Shown in pieces: positions 14,050-40,501 of a stretch of 64,000 nucleotides of DNA (its first letter is position 1; each line of letters begins with the position of its first letter). The DNA comes from a virus (taxonomy: Duplodnaviria; Caudoviricetes), in IMG/VR virus record IMGVR_UViG_3300030330_005258, positions 90,578 to 154,577 of that record. One strand, given 5' to 3'. Below the pieces are notes generated by a model. That model made no database searches. It was given only the letters and a program-made list of their open reading frames with translations, and was not told the origin of the DNA. A program made the translations under genes and the position numbers.

Positions 14050-14057
14050 GGAGTACT

Positions 14058-14459: not shown

Positions 14460-15076
14460 GTTTTAAATTTAGTATTGAAGCAGGTATCGCGCTTTTATCA
14501 ACCTATAATAAAATTGATGGTCGCTTTGTTAAATTTTTGCGTTCAATACCAAAAAATGAAAATGAAAGATTTTTTGATACCTACCCCCTGTCTAATTTTT
14601 CTATTATATCTGACGAAGATATAGATAGATTGCTTTTTTCAATTACGAAGGTAGACAGTAGAAATCTTGATGGACAATTGATATCGGAATACTATACTTT
14701 TGAGGATGCCGACGTGGAAGGAAATACGATTCAAAATTATAGTCCCAACGAAATTGAATTTTTCAGATCTCGATACGCCCCAGCACAGCCTGAAATTCAG
14801 GTTGACTTAACCCCTCCAGCCGGCAATTTTAATTCATCACAAGCTGTGATTGAAAATAACGGAATGCAATATAATTCTTTATCATCTCTTGGCGAGTTTG
14901 CCCAAGAAGATTTTATAGTTACTGCAACTACAGGTTCGGCGACAGAACTAATTACAACTGCTACAGAGCAAATTTCTGATGTGGGTGGAACAATTTCTAG
15001 AGATAGAACAATAGAAAGCCAGGACGTGCGCGTCGGCGGCAGCACTACCCAAACTGTAACAACTAGCGGATATTAA
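14456..15076 (+). CDS. Hypothetical protein, Thr-rich C-terminus
   Basis: 206-aa ORF with ATGA overlap. Confidence 0.6.
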   Translation: MSFKFSIEAGIALLSTYNKIDGRFVKFLRSIPKNENERFFDTYPLSNFSIISDEDIDRLLFSITKVDSRNLDGQLISEYYTFEDADVEGNTIQNYSPNEIEFFRSRYAPAQPEIQVDLTPPAGNFNSSQAVIENNGMQYNSLSSLGEFAQEDFIVTATTGSATELITTATEQISDVGGTISRDRTIESQDVRVGGSTTQTVTTSGY

Positions 15077-15077
15077 A

Positions 15078-18000
15078 ATGTCATTAAAAGATACAAGAAT
15101 AATAGACTTAAATCTTTTCTCAGGTTCGTCAGAACTAATGAGACAGGCTCTGGGCGGTTATTACTATGATTCTGGCGCGGGAAAGATAGAATTTAAACCA
15201 GTAGGCTTTGATTCTGTGGCACAAATAGAGGAATTCATCCCCTCCGAGCAAAGCATTGCCACTGATTCAATTTTACCAAAAATATCATACGTTTCGAGAA
15301 TTGTATTTAATGAGGCGGATACTGATATAGTTTCCGATGAAAATTGGAAAATATTTATAATAGGCGGCGAGTTCGGAGATAAAACATACCCTGGGATCTA
15401 TAATGAAAATATTTACCCTGACCACTTTAATTCATCTTCGTTGCCCTTGCTACCTAGAGAATTGGTCAATACTAATCAACAACCTTCTCTTACATTAACA
15501 ACAGAATATTTTAATTATTACCCAAGGTATCAAGCCGAAGTAGCTAACCAACAATCGGCACTAATGGCGCCAAACTATTACATGTTGCCCCATGATTTTC
15601 TTAGCAAATCAACCGATACTAATTCGTGTATAGCAGAAACAACATTCCCTCAAATCAGTAATTTTTTGACAAATTCTTATGTTAATTCAACAAAGACTTA
15701 CGATTCGGCGTTAGAAAATATTTTTATTCCTGAACCAACTGGTCTTAGTGACGAGCACAATCTTGACAAAGGGGATGATTTAAAGCCTGAACACATGGAT
15801 TCTGATTTGCAAAAGAAATATTCTTTAATGCCATTCGGCAACAAATTAATAATAGATCCAGATCTCGCTACCACTCAAACAAGCTATAGAGATATAATAG
15901 AGTCAAATAACTATGAAATCAAACTACTAAAGCTTTTAAAAGAAACTTTTCAAGGGGAGTCCTCTTTGCAGACAGCAAACGTCAACTTTGCTGTCAACAC
16001 AAAGGCAGAGATCAGCACGGGCACAGCGACCGGCTTGGTTGAATCCACAGCTACAGTGCCAGTAAAAATAGTCGATGCCCCAACAATGCTCCTATATGCA
16101 GCAAGAAATCCAATTTCTGAAACAAACAACATAACAGTTTATGATTCTAGCTCATATTCATCTACCATGGATTATGTTTTTGATACTACTGGTATCTACA
16201 GATTTGAAAATACTGAAGCAAGCTATGCAGTGTTGAACGATTTTATAAAAGAAATAAAAACAAAATTCCCAGGAGAGCCTGCCACTTATCCAATGGGAAA
16301 CTTTTTAAATCAAGCAAGGCTAGAAAAGTATCACGAAACCCTGGCGTTCAGAATTGAAAAAATAGGTGGTGGACCCACTGGAGATTCTAACACCGAGAAC
16401 ACCATACAAAATATTTGGTTTTATAACGTCAACGGACTTATAACATACCTCGATACCCAAGTAAAATATGATACTGAATATACGTACAAAATTTACAAAT
16501 ACGACATTGTTCAGGGCTACAAGTATCAACTTTCAGATATTGTAACAACTAGACAAATAGCGACAACAACTTCTGGAGAGACCAATGTATATTGTTTAGA
16601 GTTTTACGATCCGTTCACAGGTCAGGCAAGCGAACAGTTGCTTGAAGATAATAGAACCACTGCCGAATTGATAGCGCTATCAAGCTCTTTGGAAAGTGAG
16701 CGGCTGACTATAGATGGGCAACTTGTTTCTATTTTAAACAATCTTCAGTCCGCTAAAAACTCAGCAATACAACTTTACTATGAGCCTACAACAGTCTCCC
16801 CATACGGCATTGGAACTGATTATCTAAAGCCTGACGGATCTCCGGCAGAACCGCGTTTTTATACTAAATTCATAAATTTTTACGAGGGCATCTTTGGACC
16901 AAAAAGTGGCTTTCCCAAGCCGTTATTAGAGCCTGAATTGTCTTCATATTTTGAAAAAATTAAAAATTATGTTGATGATAGGCTAGCCGGCGAGGAGGGC
17001 ACCAAACAGGATATCGAAACAGAAGCTCAATCTTTTGAAGACGTTCTTATTGAAGCCAATAATCAGGGAATTCTGACACAAGTTTTAGATACGATACAGC
17101 TTACTGTGTCTGCTCTCATTGAAACAGTGCTAAGAGATTTTGAAAATTATAACATAAAATTACGAACAGAACTGGTGCCAATTCAAGAACAATTATCCGA
17201 AGTCCAAATTCAATTAGATGTTGGCGTTGGCTCTTTGCGAACCAATGCACAAATAAACTCATCTTACTCACGACTGGCTGATTTCAAAATCTCTATTGAG
17301 CCATCACTTAAAATAATAGAAATTCCCCTTGAAGAGAAGCGTATGCGGATTGTTGATCACCCTCCAAATGATTTTGTTATAACACCACACCACCTTCTTG
17401 ATCAATCAAACAGGCTGGCTTTTTATTGTAAATATGATACGTTTTCAATGTATAGCGCCACATACCCACCCGTAATTACGCCCCGTGACCAACAAAACAA
17501 ATCTGCATACTTGGTTGGTAATGATTTTATTCAAACATCAGAACAAACGCAGGAGTCCGTGTCCCGCCCCAGGTTTATTGAAGTGTATAGGACAATGACT
17601 AAGCCGACTAGCTATAGAAACTTCGCTGGCGCCCTTCGCAAAACAATTGATCTCAGGCAATCAAACGGGGATATACCTACCGATCATCTGTTTGTTGAGC
17701 GAGTCCGTGAGAACACAAAATATTACTATACTTTCCGCGCCCTTAATGAAAACGGGGTTGCTGGTCAATTAAGCCCGGTATTTGAGGCAGAACTCATTAA
17801 CGACGGTGGGTATGTATATGGGGCGTTTGAGCAATTCTCGGAAGAAGATTTAGCTGTGCCACCACCTAAAGAGCCCCTGTTGGGTTTGAAAAAGTTGTTA
17901 AACATTATACCAAATATTCAACACTTGCAACTAGATACTAGCACAGCTACTTTTGCTAGCTCCTCAATAAGCCAAATACCACAAATATCTCTTGGCTCCA

Positions 18001-18107
18001 ATGCCGAAGATACACTTTGGGATGATGATAAGTATTATAAAATAAGATTAACATCAAAGAAGACAGGCAAGAAGATAGATTTGAACATCAGCTTCAAAAA
18101 GGAATAG
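15078..18107 (+). CDS. Large structural protein with FN3-like segments and a central helical/coiled-coil insert
   Basis: YLDTQVKYDTEYTYKIY and NTKYYYTFRALNENG are FN3-like patterns. Heptad-like Leu/Ile-rich stretch at about aa 530-720. Confidence 0.55.
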   Translation: MSLKDTRIIDLNLFSGSSELMRQALGGYYYDSGAGKIEFKPVGFDSVAQIEEFIPSEQSIATDSILPKISYVSRIVFNEADTDIVSDENWKIFIIGGEFGDKTYPGIYNENIYPDHFNSSSLPLLPRELVNTNQQPSLTLTTEYFNYYPRYQAEVANQQSALMAPNYYMLPHDFLSKSTDTNSCIAETTFPQISNFLTNSYVNSTKTYDSALENIFIPEPTGLSDEHNLDKGDDLKPEHMDSDLQKKYSLMPFGNKLIIDPDLATTQTSYRDIIESNNYEIKLLKLLKETFQGESSLQTANVNFAVNTKAEISTGTATGLVESTATVPVKIVDAPTMLLYAARNPISETNNITVYDSSSYSSTMDYVFDTTGIYRFENTEASYAVLNDFIKEIKTKFPGEPATYPMGNFLNQARLEKYHETLAFRIEKIGGGPTGDSNTENTIQNIWFYNVNGLITYLDTQVKYDTEYTYKIYKYDIVQGYKYQLSDIVTTRQIATTTSGETNVYCLEFYDPFTGQASEQLLEDNRTTAELIALSSSLESERLTIDGQLVSILNNLQSAKNSAIQLYYEPTTVSPYGIGTDYLKPDGSPAEPRFYTKFINFYEGIFGPKSGFPKPLLEPELSSYFEKIKNYVDDRLAGEEGTKQDIETEAQSFEDVLIEANNQGILTQVLDTIQLTVSALIETVLRDFENYNIKLRTELVPIQEQLSEVQIQLDVGVGSLRTNAQINSSYSRLADFKISIEPSLKIIEIPLEEKRMRIVDHPPNDFVITPHHLLDQSNRLAFYCKYDTFSMYSATYPPVITPRDQQNKSAYLVGNDFIQTSEQTQESVSRPRFIEVYRTMTKPTSYRNFAGALRKTIDLRQSNGDIPTDHLFVERVRENTKYYYTFRALNENGVAGQLSPVFEAELINDGGYVYGAFEQFSEEDLAVPPPKEPLLGLKKLLNIIPNIQHLQLDTSTATFASSSISQIPQISLGSNAEDTLWDDDKYYKIRLTSKKTGKKIDLNISFKKE

Positions 18108-18125
18108 CGGAAATAAATTTAACTC

Positions 18126-18133
18126 ACTATTTA
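18126..18133 (+). promoter_or_regulatory. Putative late-promoter box ACTATTTA
   Basis: Exact copy of a motif recurring in most intergenic gaps; 26 nt before the ATG at 18152. Confidence 0.65.
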
Positions 18134-18151
18134 TGTGAGAGAGGAAAATAA

Positions 18152-19159
18152 ATGGGATTTTTAGATAACTCTGGCGACATCATACTTGACGCCGTATTGA
18201 CAGATTTGGGAAGAAAAAGAATGGCAGACGGTAATTTTCGGATTACCAAGTTCGCGTTAGGAGACGATGAGATTGATTACTCTCTATATAACGCCAATCA
18301 TCCTTCTGGTTCTGCATATTACGACCTTGAAATTTTGCAATCACCCATTATGGAAGCGCCTACTAGAATTCCGTCCGCAATAAAATATGGTCTCTTAAGT
18401 ATTACAAGAACTGACTTGGTTTACATGCCAGTTCTCAAAGTCAATGAGAAGACCGACTCGTCTCTTGTCAAGACTAATGGTGTATATTATCTAGCCGTTA
18501 ATGCAGCTACTCACGAAAACCTCCTTGCCAACAACGCCAATAGTTCTCAAAAATTCTTGGAACCCAACACGCTAAGCCCCTCCAAGGTATTGTTAATAGA
18601 AACTGGTCTTGATACAGATGAAAGAACTGCAACACTAGAAAACAGAAACGCCGCTATCGTACAAACAGGCTTGCTTGATCTAAACTTCGAAGTTAAATTC
18701 GACAATAGGTTTGTTGCTGGGATTATGTCTCTAGCCGGTGGTAAGTTCGCAAACACCTCTGACAATACCAGCGATTTAAAGTTGGATAATTTTGCTGCTC
18801 GTACCGCTGTATCATCTATAGATTTTATTGAGAATTACTCTACTGCAATGGCTGTCGGGATTGCAAACGAAGTTGCAAAACGTGGCGATCGAGCCGATGG
18901 TAACAATATATCTGCTTTTACCGGTCCTCGTGGCTCTGTTACAGCCATGACATTCATGCCAAGCCTTGAGATTAATGCAGAGGGGGCGACCTCGCCGACT
19001 TATTATACATTATATGGCACAACTGGCGCTTCTGCTTCTTCGTTAAGCCTTGCCGGTTCAGACAATTATGATTTTATTGACACAACAGTTTATGTCAAGG
19101 GCACGGCAAGCGGAACTCAATTACAAATCCCACTAAGACTAATTAGACTACAAGGTTAA
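18152..19159 (+). CDS. Baseplate/tail-collar structural protein (DUF3751 N-half-like)
   Basis: LTDLGRKRMADG..RITKFALGDD resembles the LT..G......G..ITxxAxGD start of tail-collar fibre domains. GAGG SD. Confidence 0.55.
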   Translation: MGFLDNSGDIILDAVLTDLGRKRMADGNFRITKFALGDDEIDYSLYNANHPSGSAYYDLEILQSPIMEAPTRIPSAIKYGLLSITRTDLVYMPVLKVNEKTDSSLVKTNGVYYLAVNAATHENLLANNANSSQKFLEPNTLSPSKVLLIETGLDTDERTATLENRNAAIVQTGLLDLNFEVKFDNRFVAGIMSLAGGKFANTSDNTSDLKLDNFAARTAVSSIDFIENYSTAMAVGIANEVAKRGDRADGNNISAFTGPRGSVTAMTFMPSLEINAEGATSPTYYTLYGTTGASASSLSLAGSDNYDFIDTTVYVKGTASGTQLQIPLRLIRLQG

Positions 19160-19170
19160 CGGAGAAATTA

Positions 19171-20226
19171 ATGCCTATCTATTACGAACCAATTAATGGA
19201 CAAACAGACGTAGCGACCACAAGAACGTTATTGCACGAGGTTATTCCGCTAACAGGAACAATAGTCAGCGGAACCTATGGCACGTTCCCCAATGAAGAAA
19301 ACATTAAGAACTATTCACATGGACAATTTCAGACAGTCTACGATTATCCATTTTTAAGTTCATCTGCCAATCACATCTTTGATTTGTCTGTGGGGTATGA
19401 CGAAAGCTCGGGCTACTCTGGTTCTGCGAGTCGAGTACAACAAAGAAAAAAAATTAATATGTACAACCAAATGTCTCAAGTTCTCTTGGGATATACTGGG
19501 TCCGCTAACACCGTTAGAAAGTTCGAATCTGATTTAACTCTCGACGGCTCAAATGCAATGAACGAAGTCTTCTTCGTGAACTTTTCGCGACTAATATCCA
19601 AGGATCAAGTTAAAAAGGGCTCGGTATCAGTCACGCTTTTGACGGGCGCCTATTCCGCAGGCACAGCCTCTGGCGGGACAATAACTTATTCTGATTCCAA
19701 TGCTTCTGACACTGGCGGCACACTCAATACTGTCGGCGGTGATTATGGTGTTTTGCTAGACAAATCTGTTACACCCGCCTTAACTGGTGGCATCGTGTTT
19801 TACCAAGCAGGCATTATGGTCCTTACGGCATCTGCATTTAGTAGCTCGGTCGGTCTTGCTTCAAACTTTTTTGAGAATGAAAGCGTACCGGCGGTAATCA
19901 CAGGCTCTGCTATTTCTGGCGCTTGTGATGCGCTAAGACAAAGAATACAAAATATCCAGTTCAATAACACAACTGAAATTAACTCAACAGTATATTTCTG
20001 TCGCGCACCGCATAACAAGTTTAACTATTCTAGTAACCCAACTTATCTAAGCTCAAGCTCAATTAGAGTTAAGAATAATGTTCGTGCAAATCCGCCAATA
20101 TCTTATATCACAACCATCGGGCTTTACAATTCACAAAATGAGCTTCTTGCGGTAGCTAAGCTTTCAGAGCCCCTACGCAAAGATCCAACAAACGAGCTAA
20201 CTCTCCGCGTCCGGCTGGACTACTAA
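19171..20226 (+). CDS. Baseplate/tail-collar structural protein (DUF3751 C-half-like)
   Basis: C-terminal YITTIGLYNSQNELLAVAKLSEPLRK...VRLDY; paralogue of the next gene. Confidence 0.6.
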   Translation: MPIYYEPINGQTDVATTRTLLHEVIPLTGTIVSGTYGTFPNEENIKNYSHGQFQTVYDYPFLSSSANHIFDLSVGYDESSGYSGSASRVQQRKKINMYNQMSQVLLGYTGSANTVRKFESDLTLDGSNAMNEVFFVNFSRLISKDQVKKGSVSVTLLTGAYSAGTASGGTITYSDSNASDTGGTLNTVGGDYGVLLDKSVTPALTGGIVFYQAGIMVLTASAFSSSVGLASNFFENESVPAVITGSAISGACDALRQRIQNIQFNNTTEINSTVYFCRAPHNKFNYSSNPTYLSSSSIRVKNNVRANPPISYITTIGLYNSQNELLAVAKLSEPLRKDPTNELTLRVRLDY

Positions 20227-20236
20227 GGAGGGCAAG

Positions 20237-21550
20237 ATGTCCCTCAAGAAGTTTGGACAAAGTGATATAATAAGAAATGGGTTGAGGGCTTATCCTCACA
20301 ACTCATTTTTTATATATTCCTCTTCAGTCTACTATGGTCACAGACCAATAGAAGCAGGGAAGTTCAATAATGACATATTGTCTGCCTCCGGTGGCATTAG
20401 CTTGTTTGAGTATAATGTTGATAGGGCTGGCAACACAACGATAGATAATGATAGCAATATTGGCACCGATGGAGCTAACACTCCCATAATCCCATATACC
20501 GCCGGTCGAGGCAATAGTTCTTTAAGTTACCTAAAAGCTACTCCACGAAGTAGAACATTGACCGAAGGTCCGCATCTTTCTTTTGAAATAACAGCATCGG
20601 GTCCAATGCAAGAGGTCGCAGATGTAATAGTTGTGTCAGAAAACGTCGTATTTACCGGCTCGTCTTATCCTATGTCTGCCTCTATTATCAGAGAATTTAT
20701 GACAACGGCAGGCTCTACTGGTTCATTAACTGATGTCGCAAGACCGGCTAATAGGCACTACTATGGTCTTCGCAATTCTTTAAACTTTTATGGCACGCGG
20801 TCGCCTCATTATTTTGTAGAATTCTCAGCATCTAACATAGGTGCCTGGAACAAAGATGAACAAGATATCAATCTTATATCAATACCAAAAATATTTTATG
20901 GTTCTCGCATAAAGCCGGGCTCTATGTCTCTAAAGTTTTACATCACTGGTACTTTAGTCGGCGAACTTAAAGACGAAAAATACAATGGCGAATTGATACA
21001 AGTAGGACCGGTCGGCTCTACTGGATCCGGTTCTGTGGCTGGTGTTGCGATGTATGAAGAGGGCTTCGCTTTGCTAACAGCAAGCTGGAATCTAACATCA
21101 GAAGCATTTGATTTTGGCGAGTCTGTGAATAAAACTGGGTCGTGGACTTATTTTGCTGCTGGCGCCAAAGATGGCAGAGAGGTCTCAACATCTGCATCCT
21201 TTGATTTATCTTTCAAGGGTCACACCGAGACTCAAATCTTAACCATGTATGCCCACGCCCACAGAGGCGAAGTAAATTATTCTAACAATCCCACGTTTTT
21301 AGAATACGGACAAGATAAAATATTTTTAACATCGTCTAACATTTACATCGAAAATGACAAGCAAACAATTAAAAATACAGTATCTTCAAGTTACGAAGGG
21401 CACAATTCTGCGTTCGAAAGGCAGGTCTATGTCTCGCGTGTTGCAATCTACGATGACAATAAAAAACTTATCGGTGTCGCCACACTCTCAAGCCCAGTGC
21501 TCAAGAAAGAAGCACAAGACTTATCATTCAAACTAAAGTTGGATATATAG
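20237..21550 (+). CDS. Baseplate/tail-collar structural protein, paralogue of 19171..20226
   Basis: Shares NYS.NPT and C-terminal YVSRVAIYDDNKKLIGVATLSSPVLK...LKLDI with the upstream gene. AAGGAGG SD. Confidence 0.6.
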   Translation: MSLKKFGQSDIIRNGLRAYPHNSFFIYSSSVYYGHRPIEAGKFNNDILSASGGISLFEYNVDRAGNTTIDNDSNIGTDGANTPIIPYTAGRGNSSLSYLKATPRSRTLTEGPHLSFEITASGPMQEVADVIVVSENVVFTGSSYPMSASIIREFMTTAGSTGSLTDVARPANRHYYGLRNSLNFYGTRSPHYFVEFSASNIGAWNKDEQDINLISIPKIFYGSRIKPGSMSLKFYITGTLVGELKDEKYNGELIQVGPVGSTGSGSVAGVAMYEEGFALLTASWNLTSEAFDFGESVNKTGSWTYFAAGAKDGREVSTSASFDLSFKGHTETQILTMYAHAHRGEVNYSNNPTFLEYGQDKIFLTSSNIYIENDKQTIKNTVSSSYEGHNSAFERQVYVSRVAIYDDNKKLIGVATLSSPVLKKEAQDLSFKLKLDI

Positions 21551-23875: not shown

Positions 23876-23883
23876 ACTATTTA
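23876..23883 (+). promoter_or_regulatory. Putative late-promoter box ACTATTTA
   Basis: Exact motif 35 nt before the ATG at 23911. Confidence 0.6.
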
Positions 23884-24923: not shown

Positions 24924-25034
24924 ATGAACAAGCTCATCAAGAAGGCAGCGTGGATTGCAGGATTCGTAGTGGTTTACCACATCTCCTACGCAGCATTCAC
25001 CATTATGTTTGAAATGACCGGGGCAGCGCATTGA
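24924..25034 (+). CDS. 36-aa small membrane protein (not in ORF track)
   Basis: GGAGGT-aac-ATG; MNKLIKKAAWIAGFVVVYHISYAAFTIMFEMTGAAH*. Its TGA overlaps the TTG start of the next gene (TTGA). Confidence 0.7.
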   Translation: MNKLIKKAAWIAGFVVVYHISYAAFTIMFEMTGAAH

Positions 25035-28000
25035 AGATCGCCCATATTGCTGATACTCACATCAAAAACCTAAAGTATCACGAAGACTACCGTGTCTGCT
25101 TTGAACAAATGTATCAGACCTTGCGAGAGCAAGAAGTAGACTACATTGTTCATTGTGGCGACATCGCACATACAAAGACGCAAATCTCTCCAGAGTTTGT
25201 AGAGATGGCATCTAACTTTTTTTCTACGCTCTCGGACATTGCCCCGACATTTGTAATTCTTGGTAACCACGACGGCAACTTAAAGAACAGCAGCCGACAG
25301 GATGCTATCACACCAATCGTGCAAGCACTCGATTGTGATGATTTGGTGCTGTTGAAGGACGCGGGCGAGACAGAGATACGCTCTGGCGTAACACTAAATG
25401 TTCTGTCTGTTTTCGACCGAGACAACTGGACAGATCCTAGTGACCCTGACAGTATCAACATCGCCCTCTATCACGGTGCTATCTCTAACTGCCAAACAGA
25501 TGCAGGTTGGACGATGGAGCACGGCGAGGACAATCTTTCTATCTTTGAAGAGTTTGACTTTGCGATGCTTGGCGATATCCACAAGCGGCAGTTCCTTGAC
25601 GATGAAGGTCGCGTGTACTATGCTGGCTCTACTATCCAGCAGAATCACGGAGAGGAAGACGATAAGGGTTTCTCTATCTGGACAATCAACTCCAAGGACG
25701 ACTGGGATGTCGAGCACTTTACTCTACAGAACCCACGCCCGTTTGTCACCGTCGAACTTACACGCACGGGCAAGATCCCACGCAGGGCTTCTGTGCCAGC
25801 AAACGCGCGCCTACGCATTGTAAGCGACAACAACCTGTCTCTTGACGTGATGCGCAAGGCAGTAGATGTTGCGCGCCACAAGTTCAAGCCAGAGTCTATC
25901 TCGTTCCTAAACAGGTCTGCTGGTAAGCGCGGCAGCGTTGAGGAGATTGCTGATGGGCTTGGTATGCAGAACCTCCGAGACCCAGAAGTACAACAAGAGT
26001 TGATCTCAGAGTATCTTAAGGACTATCAGGTCAAGCCCGATGTAATGTCTATAATCTACGAGTTGAACTCTAAGTACAACCAGCAGGTCGAGTCAAAAGA
26101 AGACATCAGCCGCAACGTGAATTGGGAACTTGTGACCTTTGACTGGTCAAACCTGTTCAACTATGGCGAAGGCAACTCTGTTGACTTTCGCAACATTAAT
26201 GGCATTACAGGTATCTTTGGCAAGAACTTCTCAGGCAAGTCATCTATCATCGATGCTATCTTGTTCACGATCTTTAACACAACCAGCAAGAACGAACGCA
26301 AGAACGTTAACGTCGTAAATCAGAATTGCGATTGGGGCGAAGGCAAGGTTGTGATTAACATTGGTAAGAAGGTATACACGATCCACCGTAAGGTCGAGAA
26401 GTACGAGAAGAAGTCAAAGGGCGAGACTACAATCGAAGCCAAGACACATCTTGACTTTTCTGTCTTCGACCCTGTGACCGACGAGACAACATCACTGAAC
26501 GGTATCACCCGTAACCAAACCGATGCTAACATTCGTAAGCATTTTGGTACGATCGATGACTTTCTTATTTCCTCTATGTCCTCGCAGCATGGTGCCCTTG
26601 CTTTCATCAACGAGGGCTCAACCAAGCGCAAGGAGATCATAGCCAAGTTTCTCGACCTTCAGTTCTTCGACAAGAAGTTCAAGCTGGGCAAAGAGGGTGC
26701 TCTTGACTCCAAGGTTTTGATGAAAAAGTTAGAGGGGCGAGACTACGATAAAGAAATTCAAGACGCCCAAGAAGCTCTTGAGGGCTACAAAGCAGACGTA
26801 TTGAAGGTTGAGACTGATAAGTTGAAGCTGGAATCAACCCTACAGTTTGCCAACAACAATGTGCTCGAACTATCTCAGAAGATTGCCAACATCCCGACAG
26901 AGGTTATTGACATCCATGAGGTTCAGTCCGAGATCAAAAAGACAAAAAATAAAATAATTTCTTTGTCTGATTCCATCGTTGACGACGGCAACGCACTACA
27001 TAGAGAAAGAGAACGACTTACAAAGATCAACGATCTTCTACAAACGCTTGACTATCATAGTCTTGCGAGTTCTCTTGTAAGCATTGAAGAATCTGAAAAC
27101 GAACTACAATCTTACACACAACGGCTAGAGGTTGCAACCGAGAAAAAGAAATTACTAGAAGACATACCTTGCGGCACTGCATATCCTGCTTGCAAGTTTA
27201 TTCGCGATGCTCATGTGGCTACAGCAGTCATTCCAGAAACGGAAAGCAAAATCGAAGAACTAGAGAAGCTGCTCTCCGATCTTAATCCCAAGATTGTGAG
27301 AGACCATCTCGACAAGTATCGGAAGCTTGAAAAAAAGCAAATCGAAACTGAGAGTCTAATCAAGGACTTGCAGTTGGGAATAGAACGCAGGCGCTCGGCT
27401 CTTGATAGGCACAATGCCTTGATAGAAGAACTTGCACAAAAGCAGTCTTCTTATAATGACAACAAGGAAGCAATCGAAAACTTAGAAAAATTACTAAAGG
27501 AGAAAAAGTTATATGCCCGCGAATCGCAATCCATTGAGAAGCAAATTGAATCAAATAGCCAGAAGAAGATTGATCTTTATAAATCTCTCGGCTCAGAAGA
27601 ACAACGAATCGAAGACCTCAAACAAAGACAACTAGAGTTCCAGTCAATCCAGTCGGAGTATTCATCGTATGATTTGTTCTTGCGATGTATGCACCCGAAC
27701 GGAATTGCTTACGACATCATCAAGCAGAAGCTACCAGTAATCAACGAAGAGATTGCAAAGATTCTATCAAACGTCGTAGACTTTGAGATTTTCTTTGAGA
27801 CATCTGGCAACAAGTTTGATATTTTTATCAAGCACCCCAAGCACGAGGCTCGACCTATTGAGATGGCGTCGGGTGCCGAGAAGACGATGGCTGCTATGGC
27901 TATTCGTCTTGCTCTGCTGTCTGTGTCTTCTCTGCCCAAGAGCGACCTGTTCATCTTGGACGAGCCCGGAACTGCTTTGGACGAAGAGAATATGGCAGGA

Positions 28001-28138
28001 TTTATTCGGATCTTGGAACTAATTAAGGTGTATTTCAAGAACGTCTTGTTGATTTCTCACCTTGATTCTCTCAAAGATTGTGTGGATATGCAGATTGTAA
28101 TTGAGAAAGAAGCAGGTTTCGCAAAGGTAAATCAGTAA
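25031..28138 (+). CDS. Fused Mre11/SbcD nuclease - Rad50/SbcC ATPase (T4 gp47+gp46-like)
   Basis: Phosphoesterase motifs ADTH, CGD, GNHD, YHG, LGDIH. Walker A GKNFSGKS, coiled coil, signature ASGAE, Walker B ILDEP and H-loop ISH, all in one ORF. Confidence 0.92.
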   Translation: MKIAHIADTHIKNLKYHEDYRVCFEQMYQTLREQEVDYIVHCGDIAHTKTQISPEFVEMASNFFSTLSDIAPTFVILGNHDGNLKNSSRQDAITPIVQALDCDDLVLLKDAGETEIRSGVTLNVLSVFDRDNWTDPSDPDSINIALYHGAISNCQTDAGWTMEHGEDNLSIFEEFDFAMLGDIHKRQFLDDEGRVYYAGSTIQQNHGEEDDKGFSIWTINSKDDWDVEHFTLQNPRPFVTVELTRTGKIPRRASVPANARLRIVSDNNLSLDVMRKAVDVARHKFKPESISFLNRSAGKRGSVEEIADGLGMQNLRDPEVQQELISEYLKDYQVKPDVMSIIYELNSKYNQQVESKEDISRNVNWELVTFDWSNLFNYGEGNSVDFRNINGITGIFGKNFSGKSSIIDAILFTIFNTTSKNERKNVNVVNQNCDWGEGKVVINIGKKVYTIHRKVEKYEKKSKGETTIEAKTHLDFSVFDPVTDETTSLNGITRNQTDANIRKHFGTIDDFLISSMSSQHGALAFINEGSTKRKEIIAKFLDLQFFDKKFKLGKEGALDSKVLMKKLEGRDYDKEIQDAQEALEGYKADVLKVETDKLKLESTLQFANNNVLELSQKIANIPTEVIDIHEVQSEIKKTKNKIISLSDSIVDDGNALHRERERLTKINDLLQTLDYHSLASSLVSIEESENELQSYTQRLEVATEKKKLLEDIPCGTAYPACKFIRDAHVATAVIPETESKIEELEKLLSDLNPKIVRDHLDKYRKLEKKQIETESLIKDLQLGIERRRSALDRHNALIEELAQKQSSYNDNKEAIENLEKLLKEKKLYARESQSIEKQIESNSQKKIDLYKSLGSEEQRIEDLKQRQLEFQSIQSEYSSYDLFLRCMHPNGIAYDIIKQKLPVINEEIAKILSNVVDFEIFFETSGNKFDIFIKHPKHEARPIEMASGAEKTMAAMAIRLALLSVSSLPKSDLFILDEPGTALDEENMAGFIRILELIKVYFKNVLLISHLDSLKDCVDMQIVIEKEAGFAKVNQ

Positions 28139-28572
28139 TGAAAATTACAAAGACCAGACTAAAACAAATCATCAAAGAAGAACTTGAGACAACTATGAGC
28201 GAGGGATTCTTTGACGAATTTATTAATAAGCTAAAGATTGACATAAATCCAGCCGAAGATCAAAAAGCAAAAAAGATGATGTTGAGGATGGCGATGCGTT
28301 CGAAGGAAAAGCAACTAGGATTAGAGTCTGGCTATCTTGTTGATACGCTCTATGATATGTCAAGCAAAGAACGAGATGTCTTGTCCTTGACAGAAGAGTT
28401 CAATAATCTACTAGAAGTTCTTTACACTGCTGCCCACCGCACCGCACCAGAGGACCAGAAGTCTGACAAAGAATTGGGACAGATGATAAAGAGATTTTTA
28501 GACAATGATCCAGAAACTGTGCAACTAATGTATCCACAGGTAAACAGATTAAGAAAAAAACTGAGACTTTAA
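28138..28572 (+). CDS. MKITK-leader cargo protein (putative head-internal protein)
   Basis: N-terminus MKITKTRLKQIIKEELETTMSE; remainder unrecognised. Confidence 0.6.
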   Translation: MKITKTRLKQIIKEELETTMSEGFFDEFINKLKIDINPAEDQKAKKMMLRMAMRSKEKQLGLESGYLVDTLYDMSSKERDVLSLTEEFNNLLEVLYTAAHRTAPEDQKSDKELGQMIKRFLDNDPETVQLMYPQVNRLRKKLRL

Positions 28573-28587
28573 CAATAAGGATAACTA

Positions 28588-29718
28588 ATGAGTAACGAGT
28601 TTGACTTTCTGCCACCAGCAGAAGCACCCCCATCATTCAACCAAGAAAAGGACCACTTTCACGAAGAAGTAGAAGCGGAAGACTTTGGTATGGTTGAGGA
28701 CTTCGGATTACAGATGGAATACTCTGACGAAGATATGTTACCCGAGAACACAGCACCATCATCCATAAACGTGGGCTTTGTTGGTGTTGGCGGTGGCGGC
28801 AACAAGATGGCGAACGCTATGATTGAGTTGGGCTTCAACAAGACCCTGCTTGTCAATAGCACAGGCAAAGACATTCCAAAGAATGTAGAAGAGGAGCACG
28901 TCGTTCTTATTCCCGATTCTGACGGCATCGGTAAGAACATCGCCTACGGCAAGGAAGTCCTAACACAGAACGGCGCTATTGTAGAAGACGCCCTACGCAT
29001 CAAGTTTGGCAAGGTTGATTGGCTGTTCGTGATGGCAGGCGGCGGCGGTGGCACTGGTTCGTCCGTGGTTGCCCTACAGCCTGTGTTTGAACGCTACCTA
29101 CAATCTGTTCAGGCAAGCGGTAAAGTTGTCTATATCGTCTCTTGGCCAACAGCACAAGAGAATCTAAACCCCACAATCGCCCGCAACGCCTTGTCTTTGA
29201 TAAATGATGTCACGCCATACCCACACATCGTTGTAGATAACGAGCGCTCTACGCGCCTCCTACGCGGTCGTATCGGTATGCTTGGAATGTATCCAGTAGC
29301 CAATACCCAGTTTTCAAAGATCTTCGCACAGATACTCAAACTATCCACCGAAGACTCACCTATACAATCTTTTGACTCCAGAGACTTGGAGACCTGCTTT
29401 GGTAAGGACGGTCGTGCCTTCATCGGCTCTACTATGATCAAAGATCCGAACACTGGCAAGCTCGGAACAACAATTATGCACAACTGTATGAACCGCTCTG
29501 CTTGCCCTCCACCCAAGGGTAAGGCGGCAGCAGGGTCACTTATTCTCGTAGCAAGTGAAGAGATGGTTGCAGACCCTCGCGTGTCCAAGCACCTTGAGTC
29601 TGCGATTGCTTATGTCGGTGGTCGCTGCGAGACACTTTTCTCTGGTGTTTATGTCAGAAAGAATGTCCCCGGACTGATTGCGATACTAAGTATGAATGGT
29701 ATCGAGAAAGGAAAATAA
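28588..29718 (+). CDS. Tubulin/FtsZ-family GTPase with acidic N-terminal extension
   Basis: T1 GVGGGGN, T2 LVNST, T3 GIGKN, T4 signature GGGGTGS, P..E, VDNE and T7-like FDSRD. No C-terminal FtsZ tail. Confidence 0.9.
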   Translation: MSNEFDFLPPAEAPPSFNQEKDHFHEEVEAEDFGMVEDFGLQMEYSDEDMLPENTAPSSINVGFVGVGGGGNKMANAMIELGFNKTLLVNSTGKDIPKNVEEEHVVLIPDSDGIGKNIAYGKEVLTQNGAIVEDALRIKFGKVDWLFVMAGGGGGTGSSVVALQPVFERYLQSVQASGKVVYIVSWPTAQENLNPTIARNALSLINDVTPYPHIVVDNERSTRLLRGRIGMLGMYPVANTQFSKIFAQILKLSTEDSPIQSFDSRDLETCFGKDGRAFIGSTMIKDPNTGKLGTTIMHNCMNRSACPPPKGKAAAGSLILVASEEMVADPRVSKHLESAIAYVGGRCETLFSGVYVRKNVPGLIAILSMNGIEKGK

Positions 29719-29719
29719 A

Positions 29720-30202
29720 ATGAATTTTTTAAAGACACTATGGAGTTGGTTATTAAAACTAATGCGATGCTCCCCAAGAATGCCTGTTAGCATTTCAGAC
29801 TTAGAAAAAGAACCACTTGAAGCGGACTGCTGTGAAGAGGTATGCGAGATCGAAGAAGAGTGTTGCGATCACGAAGATTGTGAACCCGCACCAGATCCCA
29901 TCATAGAAGTTCACGTAAAGGAAGAGCCCACTCCAGTCGTAGTAGAGGAAGTGGAAGAGCCAGAACCCGTTGAGATTATTGAAGAGGTATCCGCTGCACC
30001 CGCTCCTGTGGGCGAGTTGCTTAGACAAATCTTACTAGCAGAAGGCATCAGCGAAGGTGTTATCGGGAAGTATCAGATCATTGAAACATTTGAGGACTGG
30101 TACGACGGACCTATAGACGACGCCTCTGTCCGCGCAAGTATTCAAGATTTCAAGTCTGCCCAAGGTGGGGTGATTAAAGCTAAATTGAGTAGAGTACAAT
30201 GA
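29720..30202 (+). CDS. Protein with N-terminal amphipathic helix, Cys/acidic patch and Glu/Pro linker (putative membrane tether)
   Basis: ATG at 29720 after AAGGA. MNFLKTLWSWLLKLMR, then DCCEEVCEIEEECCDHEDC, an EEP/PVVV linker and a C-terminal domain of about 60 aa. Confidence 0.55.
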   Translation: MNFLKTLWSWLLKLMRCSPRMPVSISDLEKEPLEADCCEEVCEIEEECCDHEDCEPAPDPIIEVHVKEEPTPVVVEEVEEPEPVEIIEEVSAAPAPVGELLRQILLAEGISEGVIGKYQIIETFEDWYDGPIDDASVRASIQDFKSAQGGVIKAKLSRVQ

Positions 30203-30711
30203 AGATTACAAAAGCTAAATTAAAGCAAATTATTAAAGAAGAACTCGAAGTAGTCCTCACAAACGAAGAGGTCGAAGAGATGTTTGGTGAAGAAGTCCGC
30301 GCCCAAGTAGAAGCGTTAGAAAGCGAAAAGATTACCAAAGAAGCAATAATGGAAGAGATTCAATCTGATCCTGCTCTTCTAGATGCGATTGTCAAATTAA
30401 CCGATTCGATTGATGGACTTGATGTTAGCATAGACTTCCTATCCGCCGCCTTCACGGGTGAGTCGGGCGTGTCCATCGGTGCCGCCCAACGACAACTTGG
30501 TCGTGCTTACAGACCCAAGGTCCGAGCAGCCCCCGCACCTATGGACGAAGAGCTAGACGAAAGAAAATTGTCCAAAGGCGAAGAAAAGGAAAAAGAGAAG
30601 ATAGTTAAGGGTATGAAGAAATCAAAGAGTGATTTCAAGAAGCGCTATGGCGGTGACGCCGAAAGCGTAATGTACGCAACGGCGACAAAGATCGCAAAGG
30701 ATAAAAAATGA
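30199..30711 (+). CDS. MKITK-leader protein with basic C-terminal 'IVKGMKK..DFKKRYG...VMYATATK' domain
   Basis: Leader MKITKAKLKQIIKEEL, acidic middle, LDE-delimited basic C-terminal module. I recall this module from T4-like head-associated hypothetical proteins. Confidence 0.6.
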   Translation: MKITKAKLKQIIKEELEVVLTNEEVEEMFGEEVRAQVEALESEKITKEAIMEEIQSDPALLDAIVKLTDSIDGLDVSIDFLSAAFTGESGVSIGAAQRQLGRAYRPKVRAAPAPMDEELDERKLSKGEEKEKEKIVKGMKKSKSDFKKRYGGDAESVMYATATKIAKDKK

Positions 30712-31226
30712 AAATCAAAAAGTCAGAGCTACTCGCTCTAATCAAAGAAGAAATTATGAAAGAAGCGCCCTTCGGTCGTGGTATGACAATGATGGACGAC
30801 CCGTATGACGAAATTGAACCAGAGCCAGCCTCCATGCAGAGCGGTGGGGCAATGGATCAGGCTTTCCAGTATATCTTGACCGATGTTGAAAAAAGCCTAG
30901 ACTTCCCAGCCGGTGCTCTTGTTAACTACCTTGTCACACAAAACCCGGAGGCAAGCCCCGAAGCTGTCGGACAAATGGCAGTACAAACCTTAGAAGTTCT
31001 CGGAATGAATTTTCCAACTGAGCGCGCTGTTGAAGAACACATCAACAGAGAGATGGACGACAGAGAAGCCGACATGATGCAAGAAGGCATGGAAGGTATC
31101 AACCCCGAGAACATGCAACTTGTAGCGGACGCCCTACAGAAGATGGCACCGCTAATTGGTGTTATGTCGTTGCCAGTTCTTATTGGACTTATCTATGAGC
31201 AACTTCGCGGCATGGGCGCCAAATGA
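30708..31226 (+). CDS. Leader-family cargo protein with C-terminal hydrophobic helix
   Basis: MKIKKSELLALIKEEIMKE; C-terminal APLIGVMSLPVLIGLIY. Confidence 0.55.
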   Translation: MKIKKSELLALIKEEIMKEAPFGRGMTMMDDPYDEIEPEPASMQSGGAMDQAFQYILTDVEKSLDFPAGALVNYLVTQNPEASPEAVGQMAVQTLEVLGMNFPTERAVEEHINREMDDREADMMQEGMEGINPENMQLVADALQKMAPLIGVMSLPVLIGLIYEQLRGMGAK

Positions 31227-31426
31227 TGAGTAAAGAACAAAAGCAAGCACTACTCGACAGAGGCATACAAAAACTAACTTCCCGCAAACTACTTGTGTGG
31301 CTTACTGCCACAGGTCTTATGATGTGGGGCGGACTAGAATCAGCAGACTGGGTTATCATATCTGGTCTTTATCTCGGTGGTCAATCCGTAATTGATGCTA
31401 TTGTAAAATTAAAAGGACTAGAATAA
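31223..31426 (+). CDS. Putative holin
   Basis: 67 aa, Met-Met start, TSRKL followed by two hydrophobic helices and a charged C-terminus. Confidence 0.5.
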   Translation: MMSKEQKQALLDRGIQKLTSRKLLVWLTATGLMMWGGLESADWVIISGLYLGGQSVIDAIVKLKGLE

Positions 31427-31442
31427 GTTGAAAGACCAAACA

Positions 31443-31949
31443 ATGAAGATTACAAAGACTAGATTAAAAAAAATTATCAAAGAAGAACTTGATATAGTTT
31501 TAAAGGAATACCTAACTATGGAAGATGCCCCACGCTATTTTGCTGGGAAAGCCATAGGCGCCCTTAAAGCAGCACGAGAAATGTCCAATCGTTTCGCAAC
31601 AGCAAAAGGTTATGCAGCAAAAGGTCAGTCAATCCGTAAATCAGAACTTGGAAAACTTGAAAAGGAAGTTGGCGGCACTGCCAGAGATTACTGCCGCGAG
31701 GTCGGCAAAGAATTCTATAGAATAGCAGACCAGATGTCTTCAGCAATGGCTTACAAGTCAGGTGCTGACTTTGCTGATTTTGAACCTAGACTAAAAGAAA
31801 TAGGAAAAAAATTAATTTCAGCCTCAAATGCAATGATAACCGCCCCCGAAGGTGGCGCCAAAGAATTTAAAAAAGCAGTAGATCAATTATCTCCCGAATT
31901 TGATGACCTTATTAAGATTGGTTATGAAATTATTGAAGCCAACTCTTGA
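31443..31949 (+). CDS. MKITK-leader cargo protein (helical)
   Basis: ATG at 31443: MKITKTRLKKIIKEELDIVLKE. Confidence 0.6.
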   Translation: MKITKTRLKKIIKEELDIVLKEYLTMEDAPRYFAGKAIGALKAAREMSNRFATAKGYAAKGQSIRKSELGKLEKEVGGTARDYCREVGKEFYRIADQMSSAMAYKSGADFADFEPRLKEIGKKLISASNAMITAPEGGAKEFKKAVDQLSPEFDDLIKIGYEIIEANS

Positions 31950-31952
31950 AGT

Positions 31953-32339
31953 ATGAATCTGAAACAAAAAATACTATCTTTTTGTCTAAAACACTGGAAG
32001 GAGATCGGGCTTGTCCTGCTCCTTCTTGTTGTATTTGGCAAGTCGCAGTATGATGTACGCAACATTATCAAAGCACACGAGATTGCCGAGCAGTCCTTGA
32101 AGGATCAGATAAGCACCTTACAATCCCTCCACACCGAAGAGTTGCGCTTACGCGATGAAGCCCTTGAACAATATCGCATAGAGATAGAAGAGTTAGAGTT
32201 GGAATACGAAGCACGACAAGCCGAGATAAAGGACTTAACGAGAGCAGAAAAAGAAGTTATAATAAAAGAGTTCAAACAAGACAAGGCTCTGATTATACAG
32301 CGCTTTGAAGAGACCTACGGATTAAGATATGTTGAATAG
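31953..32339 (+). CDS. i-spanin-like protein (N-terminal TM plus coiled coil)
   Basis: EIGLVLLLLVVF TM segment followed by a long helical charged region; near the holin-like gene. Confidence 0.45.
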   Translation: MNLKQKILSFCLKHWKEIGLVLLLLVVFGKSQYDVRNIIKAHEIAEQSLKDQISTLQSLHTEELRLRDEALEQYRIEIEELELEYEARQAEIKDLTRAEKEVIIKEFKQDKALIIQRFEETYGLRYVE

Positions 32340-32739
32340 CCTAATGTTGCTTGCTTTACTCTCGACCGCAAGCGCCGAGGACTTTACAGTCCTCGCAGAA
32401 GACCAGCCCGCCCCATTTGAGGGCGTTCTGCTTAGCGTGCCTGCTGCCGCAGAGATATTGACAAAGCACGAGGAAGCAAAGCTGAAGTGCGATCTTGAAG
32501 TAGAGTTTCAACTTGACAAGGCAGCCTCTCAATGCAAACTTGATAAGGAACTTCTTGAAGCACGCATAGTCACACTTGACCAACAACACGCCGAGATTGT
32601 GGCGTCAAAAGATCTTGTGATCGAAAAGCAGCAAGCGATTATTAAGAAGCAAGCACCACATCGTAAGTGGCTTTGGTTCGCAGGTGGCGTTGTGCTTGGC
32701 GGCGCTACTTACTACGGCATTCAGCAGGCGGCTAAATGA
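32329..32739 (+). CDS. Exported coiled-coil protein with C-terminal hydrophobic anchor (spanin partner-like)
   Basis: Signal peptide MLNSLMLLALLSTASA, coiled coil, C-terminal WLWFAGGVVLGGATYYGI. Overlaps the previous gene. Confidence 0.45.
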   Translation: MLNSLMLLALLSTASAEDFTVLAEDQPAPFEGVLLSVPAAAEILTKHEEAKLKCDLEVEFQLDKAASQCKLDKELLEARIVTLDQQHAEIVASKDLVIEKQQAIIKKQAPHRKWLWFAGGVVLGGATYYGIQQAAK

Positions 32740-33116
32740 GCAAAGACCCAGATTACATTGTTAGAGTAGAGCAAGCCATCGCCAAGAAGTATGGTGAAGA
32801 AGCAATCCAGAATCCCAAAGCAGAATGGGACGAGAATAAAGAGAAAGTTTATCTGGAACAGATGCGAGAACTCTACAAGAAGCAAAAGAAAAACGACGAA
32901 GCCAACGATAAAGTAGAAGTAAATGGTATAAAGGTTTCAAGAAAACTACTTAATAGAGAATCCAAGACAGGGTGTCCTGTTTGTGGTGCCTTCTCACATT
33001 CCGCCCGTGATGACGTATCGCTCGTAAAGTTTGGCTGCTGCTACAAGTGTTATATCAAGTGGGTTGAAGGAAGGGAAGAAAGATGGCAAAAAGGATGGAG
33101 ACCAAATGAAGGCTGA
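32736..33116 (+). CDS. Zn-finger hypothetical protein
   Basis: CPVC...CYKC; C-terminal VEGREERW..GWRP. Confidence 0.6.
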   Translation: MSKDPDYIVRVEQAIAKKYGEEAIQNPKAEWDENKEKVYLEQMRELYKKQKKNDEANDKVEVNGIKVSRKLLNRESKTGCPVCGAFSHSARDDVSLVKFGCCYKCYIKWVEGREERWQKGWRPNEG

Positions 33117-33417
33117 CGAATTAAGAGAACTAATCAGAGAAGTTTTGAAAGAACAAGAAAAAGAAGAAACTCCGACTGACGATAAGAAGGCAACCAAACT
33201 TAAGACTGGTTCGATGTCTGGCTCTCAACGACTAAAAAAGTCAAGAGAAAGAATCACCGACACATCAAACGAATTCACTCCACAAGAACAAAAGATTGTA
33301 GATCAGCTTGAAAAGTTTATTTCCGATCTCGCAGCCAAAGAAGGAATAGATCTCCTACAACATAGAGCTTTCTTAGAGAAAGCTATGAAATTAATTCAAC
33401 AAAGAATTGTAAAATAA
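33106..33417 (+). CDS. Leader-family small protein
   Basis: ATG at 33106 after GGAG. MKADELRELIREVLKE is a leader variant. Confidence 0.55.
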   Translation: MKADELRELIREVLKEQEKEETPTDDKKATKLKTGSMSGSQRLKKSRERITDTSNEFTPQEQKIVDQLEKFISDLAAKEGIDLLQHRAFLEKAMKLIQQRIVK

Positions 33418-33423
33418 AAACCA

Positions 33424-33431
33424 ACTATTTA
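33424..33431 (+). promoter_or_regulatory. Putative late-promoter box ACTATTTA
   Basis: Exact motif 26 nt before 33450, heading the terminase-portal unit. Confidence 0.65.
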
Positions 33432-33449
33432 TTTCAAAGGAATACCACA

Positions 33450-33998
33450 ATGGCAACAGTTTACGAAATCGTCCAGGCGCTATCACAAGCCGCAGCAAAC
33501 GCCTATGACGGAGCACATGATGCGGACGGCAAGCCAATCCAAGCAGGTCTACAGCGGGAAGAAGGCGAGCCACTCATTGACAAGCGCGTCATGGACGGCT
33601 TCAATGTTAGATTCCACGGTAACATCATGCGTCTATCCTACATGTCCGAAGTTCACCTAAAAGAAGTATATGCTAACGGCTTTGAGTCTGATATAGAACA
33701 GCGCATGGCTGACATTGTAAAGTTTCTGAAGAAAGAAGCCCGAAAGGCTGGCGGCGGATCTATCTCACTCGCTAAAGAGGGAGAGATTGATATCCGTGTT
33801 GAAAATTCTTCAAGAGTCCGTTCTTGGGTAACAGCCGTTATGGATTACAAGATTGGCGGCATGGAAGCGGCATCTGTCGTTGGCGAAGCAACTGAAGATA
33901 AGCTCGCCGCAGGTTGGGAAAAGTTCATGTCACAGGGCGGACTTGGTACCCGTCCTCCAAATGACAAGAGACCAGCAAACTCTGGCAAGAAAGAATAA
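33450..33998 (+). CDS. Hypothetical protein upstream of terminase
   Basis: 182-aa ORF with AAGGA SD. Confidence 0.65.
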   Translation: MATVYEIVQALSQAAANAYDGAHDADGKPIQAGLQREEGEPLIDKRVMDGFNVRFHGNIMRLSYMSEVHLKEVYANGFESDIEQRMADIVKFLKKEARKAGGGSISLAKEGEIDIRVENSSRVRSWVTAVMDYKIGGMEAASVVGEATEDKLAAGWEKFMSQGGLGTRPPNDKRPANSGKKE

Positions 33999-39918: not shown

Positions 39919-40152
39919 ATGAAGATTACCAAAGCAAGACTAAAAGAAATCATTAAAGAAGAAATTGAAGCCGTTAAGGAAGGACCCCAACGCGCGTTCT
40001 GCATTGGCTACGAAAAAGATGGTGAAACAAAGCACCAGACTGTTCATGCTGACGCTCCCGGAATCGCCGAGAGAAAGATCAAGAGAGAGCACGATGTTCG
40101 TGATAGCGCAATCAAGAGCACAAAAGAAGGGAAGTGTAAAGGTCATGCATAA
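39919..40152 (+). CDS. MKITK-leader mini cargo protein flanked by 9-bp direct repeats
   Basis: GAGG SD; MKITKARLKEIIKEEIEAVKE. GCATAATTA at 39876-39884 and at 40147-40155. Confidence 0.65.
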   Translation: MKITKARLKEIIKEEIEAVKEGPQRAFCIGYEKDGETKHQTVHADAPGIAERKIKREHDVRDSAIKSTKEGKCKGHA

Positions 40153-40210
40153 TTATCTTATTGGAAAATGGGGACTACAACCAGTCCGCCGATGCTGCAA
40201 AGGCTCTTAG
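40145..40210 (+). pseudogene. Orphaned 3' end of the DUF1360-like gene (HNYLIGKWGLQPVRRCCKGS), or a 21-aa peptide
   Basis: Removing the DNA between the two GCATAATTA repeats fuses ...GIMIKHN in frame to YLIGKWGLQPVRRCCKGS*. Confidence 0.45.
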
Positions 40211-40243
40211 CTCGCGCGGGTAGCGCCCGCATAAGGAATACAA

Positions 40244-40501
40244 ATGAAACTTACCAGAACAAAACTAAAACAGATTATCAAAGAAGAACTAGACAGGGCT
40301 TCTGAAATTAAAGCTGAAAGAGTTGTTAACTTTATCAAAGATCACGGTGACACACACGCAGAACTTGTGCATCAAGATGATGGTTCTATGAAGATCAAGG
40401 TTGTAACAAAGATATATGATACCAACACTCGCAAGATGAGTTCAGAAGTTAATTATATTGAACCCACTATGCAAGCAGCAAGAGGAATATTGGAATACTA
40501 A
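40244..40501 (+). CDS. MKITK-leader mini cargo protein
   Basis: MKLTRTKLKQIIKEEL. Its RBS/start region is duplicated at the protease start. Confidence 0.65.
   Translation: MKLTRTKLKQIIKEELDRASEIKAERVVNFIKDHGDTHAELVHQDDGSMKIKVVTKIYDTNTRKMSSEVNYIEPTMQAARGILEY

Follow-up and report, generated by a model that had tools for sequence, protein, structure and literature searches.

To our knowledge, phage tubulins have so far been known from nucleus-forming phiKZ-like phages, which encode PhuZ, and from partition systems, which use TubZ (pBtoxis/pXO1 and Clostridium phage c-st). The tails of FtsZ, TubZ and PhuZ are C-terminal. Here we analyzed a gene for a tubulin/FtsZ-type GTPase with an N-terminal tail, located in a 64,000-nucleotide stretch of viral DNA (hereafter, the window) that forms the final 64 kb of a 154.6 kb IMG/VR contig (IMGVR_UViG_3300030330_005258), estimated to be 64% complete. 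In reviews on jumbo phages and marine jumbo phages, the tubulins mentioned are all of the PhuZ or TubZ type and linked to phiKZ-like phages (PMC7824862, PMC9123017, PMC13282480), and a protein of phage G has been mentioned as an FtsZ/tubulin-like GTPase (PMC12484599). In the literature searched, in which subscription journals were thinly covered, we found no tubulin described for T4-like phages or for marine phages without chimallin. The results below indicate that an abundant group of T4-like phages of the ocean, apparently without a phage nucleus, also carries their own tubulin-type protein, with a putative adaptor tail at the opposite molecular end and with the gene for it consistently tied to head-assembly genes.

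The phage tubulin and its relatives

The open reading frame (ORF) at 28588-29718 encodes a real, intact but very divergent GTPase of the tubulin/FtsZ superfamily. Its elements are as follows.

28588..29718, + strand: tubulin/FtsZ-superfamily GTPase gene including the stop codon (376 aa, P0001, ATG start)
28577..28581, + strand: ribosome-binding site AAGGA, read from the sequence, 6 nt 5′ of the ATG
28588..28761, + strand: N-terminal tail, residues 1-58, acidic, net charge -16 (composition, AlphaFold, pN/pS)
28678..28707, + strand: conserved acidic-aromatic motif E31-DFGMVEDFG-40 (family alignment)
28738..28749, + strand: L51-P-E-N54, with L and N invariant, at the junction of tail and ordered fold (alignment, AlphaFold)
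28783..28806, + strand: T1 glycine loop G66-VGGGGN-K73, nucleotide binding (PDB matches, family alignment)
29038..29064, + strand: T4 tubulin signature G151-GGGGTGSS-159 (PDB matches, family alignment)
29236..29244, + strand: D217-N-E219, invariant, counterpart of the FtsZ N-D in IPND(R/K)L (alignment)
29368..29388, + strand: T7 synergy loop S261-FDSRDL-267, with D263 and D266 invariant (alignment)

The motifs named in the original prediction (GVGGGG, GGGGTGS, DNE and DSRD) were all found where it had placed them, the T4 signature starting at nt 29038. Membership in the superfamily was supported by the intact T1, T4 and T7 elements, by a two-domain fold and by a match of residues 63-219 to PF00091 (Tubulin/FtsZ GTPase) with 34.8 bits, which is borderline against the cut-off of 33; several other members of the family scored under this cut-off. 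The T7 residues D263 and D266 correspond to the catalytic D210 and D213 of S. aureus FtsZ in a HMMER alignment and were unchanged in 76 of 76 aligned members, while the final Gly of the canonical GGGTG(S/T)G was replaced by Ser or Ala across the family. Among solved structures, the top matches were S. aureus FtsZ (E 7e-8) and a CetZ (E 1e-7). Two AlphaFold models, generated with alignments of 19 and 76 sequences, gave a predicted local distance difference test (pLDDT) of 83 and 87.5 and a predicted template modeling score of 0.80 and 0.83, respectively. Both predicted a complete tubulin/FtsZ fold between residues ~58 and 373, consisting of the Rossmann-like GTPase domain, helix H7 and the C-terminal domain of the superfamily. 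A last strand at 363-372 closes the model and nothing follows it, which agreed with the family alignment and with the earlier statement that the protein ends directly after its C-terminal domain. The net charge of the GTPase core was +4. A Pfam scan returned no match to PF22453 or PF21493, and the best result of a PHROGs search was a weak one to the unannotated phrog_17961 (E 0.0015).

We then asked where in the superfamily this protein belongs. Against TIGR00065, the NCBIfam equivalog of FtsZ, it scored 47.2 bits, compared to a cut-off of 295.2 and to 471.7 for the E. coli FtsZ control, and BLASTP against E. coli FtsZ was not significant (E=0.21). Identity was 17-20% to any FtsZ and 20-22% to CetZ. 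When the family profile was searched against PDB, the best match was CetZ 3zid (43 bits), followed by S. aureus FtsZ (~40) and c-st TubZ (31, N-terminal domain only), and there was no match to PhuZ or to eukaryotic and bacterial tubulins with E up to 10. The nearest predicted structures of viral proteins were just 16-19% identical, and PhuZ structures in BFVD matched with a template modeling score of ~0.5 and 11-13% identity. PhuZ was missing from the 50 best rows of a structure comparison, which by itself excludes nothing. In a tree of 65 sequences (IQ-TREE, LG+C20, quick search), built from the family with FtsZ, PhuZ and other references but without CetZ, archaeal FtsZ or tubulin sequences, the core family was a clade with 100% support and a stem of 2.07 substitutions per site. 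Bacterial FtsZ, including FtsZ from the metagenome-assembled genomes (MAGs) that carry a relative, formed a separate clade with 99% support and a stem of more than 2. PhuZ was separate again, in a tree whose backbone was not resolved and in which several references sat on long branches. By profile scores, BLASTP and the tree the family does not nest in bacterial FtsZ, and by profile search and the tree it does not nest in PhuZ. Thus, a recent capture of host FtsZ was rejected, and the predicted status of a distinct family, outside bacterial FtsZ and outside the described PhuZ clades, was sustained.

A word-indexed search of 5.8 billion proteins gave 932 relatives, the best 120 of which were all at least 58% identical and came mostly from marine metagenomes, Tara included. 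Some relatives had been named automatically as "cell division GTPase FtsZ", a name that our placement shows to be wrong for these proteins. When 1.84 billion representatives were searched exhaustively with a profile, only 1006 proteins reached E <= 1e-3. Canonical FtsZ by itself would account for far more, and the profile therefore does not absorb ordinary FtsZ. Full-length representatives of the core family scored 378-537 bits. Below them, full-length proteins reached no more than 136 bits; this second tier was a mixed set of proteins in viral context with weak matches to TubZ-like_C and Tubulin_2. In IMG/VR, 322 contigs carried a relative, and the nearest ESM Atlas clusters were 87-100% viral. 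Among 185,579 prokaryote species, each represented by one genome, there were six matches only, all on short MAG contigs (four Flavobacteriales/Flavobacteriaceae, one Legionellales and one Hyphomonadaceae). These contigs (L020-L025: PAAD01000063, PBLX01000051, DQKQ01000040/192, CAJQPF010000044, CAYSED010000179) are most simply explained as binned phage fragments, and those of Flavobacteriales are at best a weak hint of the host. The sole match among 50,697 deposited phage genomes, a collection in which records very close to the window may be masked, was gp138 of Bacillus phage G, with 24% identity over half of the protein. Genomes of isolates did not contain the family. Judged by sequence, the phage tubulins are a tight, widespread and virus-only family, uncharacterized so far.

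The N-terminal tail

The acidic N-terminal extension of about 58 aa that had been predicted was confirmed. Disorder was predicted up to around residue 46 (pLDDT ~40-56), and pLDDT exceeded 90 from around residue 51 onward. Of the tail elements pointed out originally, EFDF is present, but the extreme N-terminus that includes it is variable and missing from several clades. What is conserved is a DFGF..HYG-type motif with the family pattern [DE]F[GD][FLMI]x[EDSN][DH][FY]G, corresponding to residues 32-40 plus one acidic residue before them. It was found in 108 of 120 members, each time starting exactly 34 residues before T1, and D32, F33 and G40 were invariant or at least 90% conserved in the alignment. 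Across the 120 members the segment preceding T1 ranged from 36 to 96 residues (median 68) and contained 28% acidic and 2.7% basic residues, whereas the other end was uniform: all members stopped 6-10 residues past the last strand, with no C-terminal tail. An N-terminal tail combined with the absence of a C-terminal one is thus the architecture of the whole family.

In order to estimate constraint, the ratio of nonsynonymous to synonymous polymorphism (pN/pS) was taken from nine ungapped relatives with 86-92% nucleotide identity. It was 0.01 for residues 1-30, 0.04 for residues 31-58 and 0.02 for the core, and the tail is therefore translated and under purifying selection of the same strength as that on the enzyme. 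Docking of the motif on its own core was not supported, because in the 76-sequence AlphaFold run the tail stayed undocked at pLDDT 44-56. In the models, this is consistent with a short linear motif that would bind in trans.

These features separate the family from each described system, although it shares parts with several of them. Like FtsZ, it has a minimal two-domain fold that ends after the last beta-strand, with T1, T4 and the T7 DxxD, and in both a short conserved peptide is carried on a disordered tail. In FtsZ, however, a variable linker and a conserved peptide lie at the C-terminus and the gene belongs to the division cluster, while the phage tail is N-terminal, acidic and fixed in its 34-residue spacing, and the phage genes are virus-only and sit among head genes. 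TubZ differs by its long C-terminal helix H11 and tail, by its TubR/tubC partner cassette, which has no counterpart by the phage gene, and by a sequence match confined to the N-terminal domain. CetZ, which acts in archaeal cell shape, is not viral and has a C-terminal helix that the phage family lacks. The resemblance to PhuZ is that of a tubulin homologue encoded by a large phage, which may handle capsids and in which an acidic tail appears important, but the acidic tail of PhuZ is C-terminal and inserts into the next subunit, and the phage analyzed here is T4-type. Phage G gp138 is likewise a tubulin-family protein of a very large myovirus; it has no N-terminal tail, beginning at the T1 strand, and forms a long isolated branch in the tree. 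By sequence comparison, then, these proteins make up a viral subfamily of their own within the tubulin/FtsZ superfamily, marked by an inverted topology of the tail and by association with the head module.

Head-gene linkage and proposed function

The phage can justifiably be called T4-like, as had been predicted, because T4-type head, sheath and replication/recombination genes were matched. Head markers in the window were Portal_T4 (255 bits), Gp23 (254), Peptidase_S77, the gp21-type prohead protease (103), and Terminase_6N (48), accompanied by a contractile sheath and a weak match to the gp19 tube. Upstream of the tubulin gene were a primase, a RuvC-like resolvase and a fused SbcD-SbcC nuclease. 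Every gene was on the same strand, and the contig had no second gene of the tubulin family. Single-sequence searches, which are weak evidence on a contig ~64% complete, gave no match to phiKZ chimallin or the phiKZ RNA polymerase beta subunit on the 154.6 kb, and no DNA-binding or other domain was recognizable in the genes neighboring tubulin. The earlier statement that no chimallin-like or TubR-like gene can be recognized thus held for the contig and for the tubulin neighbors, respectively.

Marker genes were located in 113 distinct viral loci, and the tubulin gene occupied at least four different positions among them. In the clade of the window (84-99% identity) and in a 67% clade, tubulin comes after RuvC, primase and SbcDC, in that order, and ~5 kb of small genes separate it from TerL, portal and protease. 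The 59-62% clade has TerL and portal first, then 2-3 conserved genes and tubulin, with the prohead protease 0.8 kb downstream of tubulin and the major capsid protein (MCP) further on, and in the 54-58% clades tubulin lies between protease and MCP or between MCP and sheath. A head or packaging marker was within 10 kb of tubulin in 102 of 113 loci. There was no constant neighbor: the genes flanking tubulin in the window were present in only 5-38 of the 98 loci tabulated for the window's clade, overlapping loci not being de-duplicated, and a conserved block at 31223-33998 travels with TerL rather than with tubulin. We found neither centromere-like repeats nor a small DNA-binding neighbor traveling with the gene. 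Since the neighbors are inconstant and have no recognizable DNA-binding domain, the gene has no TubRC-like cassette.

Five small genes of the window (28138-28572, 30199-30711, 30708-31226, 31428-31949 and 39919-40457) share a leader, MKITKxxLKQIIKEELE, joined to unrelated bodies. The bodies swap between close relatives, being present in 5-38 of the 98 loci, and the tubulin gene uses the same variable slots without having the leader. The leader resembles the capsid-targeting sequence of T4, with an I-x-E site for the prohead protease.

Timing of expression was addressed by searching for promoter-like elements, which are listed here.

1064, 11067, 18126, 23876, 33424, 39765, 42204, 44364, 46623, 48846, 51890, 52753, 55466, + strand: copies of ACTATTTA
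23876..23883, + strand: the nearest ACTATTTA upstream of tubulin, a late-promoter-like element

The 13 copies of ACTATTTA in the window, all on the + strand, compare to 2.7 expected, and none of 100 shuffles reached 13. Because they are placed 20-60 nt upstream of most structural genes in the window, ACTATTTA is likely the core of a late-type promoter of this phage group; it also precedes structural genes in two relatives (L002 and L007). The T4 late promoter TATAAATA was not enriched (6 matches, mostly on the minus strand, vs 2.7 expected) and was discarded as the late promoter here; the phage apparently uses ACTATTTA instead. A scan for sigma-70 promoters and terminators around the tubulin gene gave nothing above background. 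A unit that includes both SbcDC and tubulin may start at the element at 23876. In the 59-62% clade, ACTATTTA was present 220-250 nt upstream of tubulin in 13 of 16 loci, and in the two loci examined in detail the next copy came only after the S21 gene. Tubulin, prohead protease and the next genes are therefore one probable late operon in that clade.

Taken together, the evidence tips slightly towards a GTP-driven filament that works late in infection, uses its tail as a docking handle and serves head assembly, packaging or virion positioning. Subunits would assemble head-to-tail into GTP-dependent filaments, in which D263 and D266 of one subunit would complete the nucleotide site of the next, by analogy with FtsZ and TubZ. 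T7 aspartates work only across the subunit interface, and it is their invariance in this family that argues for polymerization. The acidic-aromatic motif would dock in trans on a neighboring subunit, a cargo or an anchor protein. The filament would be made late at least in some clades, and possibly in this genome, and would organize or position the steps by which heads are assembled, DNA is packaged or virions mature in a large phage without a phage nucleus. Late action appears most likely because the gene stays by the head/packaging module and heads a probable late operon in one clade, and this linkage, the best clue to function and one that the original prediction had not drawn on, favors a late or assembly role over positioning of replication sites or partition. 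If such filaments form, they would offer a tractable system for relating tail position to filament polarity and cargo coupling, and for studying the organization of large capsids in small marine cells and the viral re-invention of cytoskeletons.

Several observations weigh against this proposal. The Ser or Ala that the alignment shows in place of the last Gly of the T4 signature may affect nucleotide handling, and no cultured representative was found. The 113 loci are related, so the synteny amounts to ~4-6 independent arrangements; about eight loci have no marker within 10 kb, one type of which places tubulin between sugar-modification genes and a giant protein. Nearness to head genes is, moreover, co-location and not a physical or functional link. 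In the window itself, 4.7 kb separate tubulin from the closest late-type element upstream, and tubulin directly follows SbcDC, for which reason early or middle timing is possible in this genome.

A more specific version, possible though doubtful, is that the filament was recruited to T4-type head morphogenesis, is co-expressed with the prohead protease and grips a head, portal or packaging component by its N-terminal handle, organizing the assembly or filling of very large capsids or forming a polymer inside the prohead. If true, phages would use tubulin in a third independent way, next to the spindle of PhuZ and partition by TubZ, and this would be the first such use in which the adaptor tail sits on the filament's N-terminal face. 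We consider it improbable that the protein is itself a component of the head, brought to the prohead or packaged in it, perhaps as a polymer inside, and that the acidic tail serves for targeting or is processed. Its occurrence in the slots of the seemingly head-targeted MKITK-leader genes and its position directly before the gp21-type protease in the 59-62% clade would suit such a role, as would the L-x-E/D in the tail just ahead of the fold, which resembles the cleavage sites of T4 gp21. But tubulin has no such leader, and an intact GTPase and T7 loop are unexpected in a passive packaged protein. The candidate site L51-P-E was rejected as well, since the models place L51-P-E-N54 in ordered structure (pLDDT >90) and several members have Asp at position 53.

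Interference with host division is also rather unlikely, although unrelated small proteins of other phages inhibit FtsZ. By that account, the protein co-assembles with host FtsZ or caps it and, having no membrane tether, blocks cytokinesis, as might be expected of an FtsZ-like minimal core that ends at its last strand, without the C-terminal helices of TubZ or CetZ and without the C-terminal peptide that brings FtsZ to the membrane. Shared longitudinal interfaces with host FtsZ are unlikely, however, because identity is low, with BLASTP against E. coli FtsZ not significant and the equivalog score far below its cut-off, and because FtsZ of the contig-carrying Flavobacteriales MAGs lies in a separate, distant clade; a mere capper, furthermore, would not need an intact T7 loop and a constrained N-terminal motif. 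It is very unlikely that filaments partition a non-integrated phage genome in a carrier or pseudolysogenic state in the manner of TubZ: the neighbors are interchangeable, with no DNA-binding partner or repeats kept beside the gene, the C-terminal tail to which TubR binds in TubZ is absent, and the phage is of the lytic T4-like type with the gene among late genes. Very unlikely indeed is a non-polymerizing GTPase that acts as a regulatory or enzymatic switch; the very long stem and the deviating T4 glycine would allow it, but the T7 aspartates, which could act only across an interface, are invariant. A PhuZ-like spindle that centers a replication compartment (phage nucleus) seems extremely unlikely. 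It would fit a tubulin homologue in a large phage, and a shell gene could lie in the rest of a genome of which the contig is 64%, but PhuZ shows no sequence match and falls in its own clade, chimallin and a phiKZ-type RNA polymerase subunit were not found on the contig, and the virion and replication genes are T4-type and not chimallivirus-type.

Other genes around the locus

Large ORFs, namely one of 2955 aa and nine more, lie upstream of the replication genes (1344-10211 and 10208-21550). None matched PHROGs at E <= 1e-5, and they presumably belong to tail fibers or baseplates of a kind with little sampling so far. At 25031-28138, SbcD (Mre11-like phosphoesterase) and SbcC (Rad50-like ATPase) are fused in an ORF of 1035 aa with a TTG start, preceded by a gap of 160 nt. 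In T4 the equivalents, gp47 and gp46, are separate genes. An ORF of 168 aa at 29696-30202 overlaps the stop codon of tubulin; its product is very acidic with a Cys-rich cluster, CCEEVCEIEEECCDHEDCE, has no family match and occurs in just 12 of the 98 loci of the window's clade.

In two relatives of the 59-62% clade, the head module contains a gene for ribosomal protein S21 (PF01165), located between those for protease and major capsid protein (L002 9145-9351, L007 9239-9451). In the same clade, a conserved GC-rich hairpin, GTGCGGG-TTAC/TTGC-GCCCGCAC, is located just upstream of the tubulin start (L002 ~5950-5990, L007 ~5960-5990), within the long leader downstream of the ACTATTTA element.
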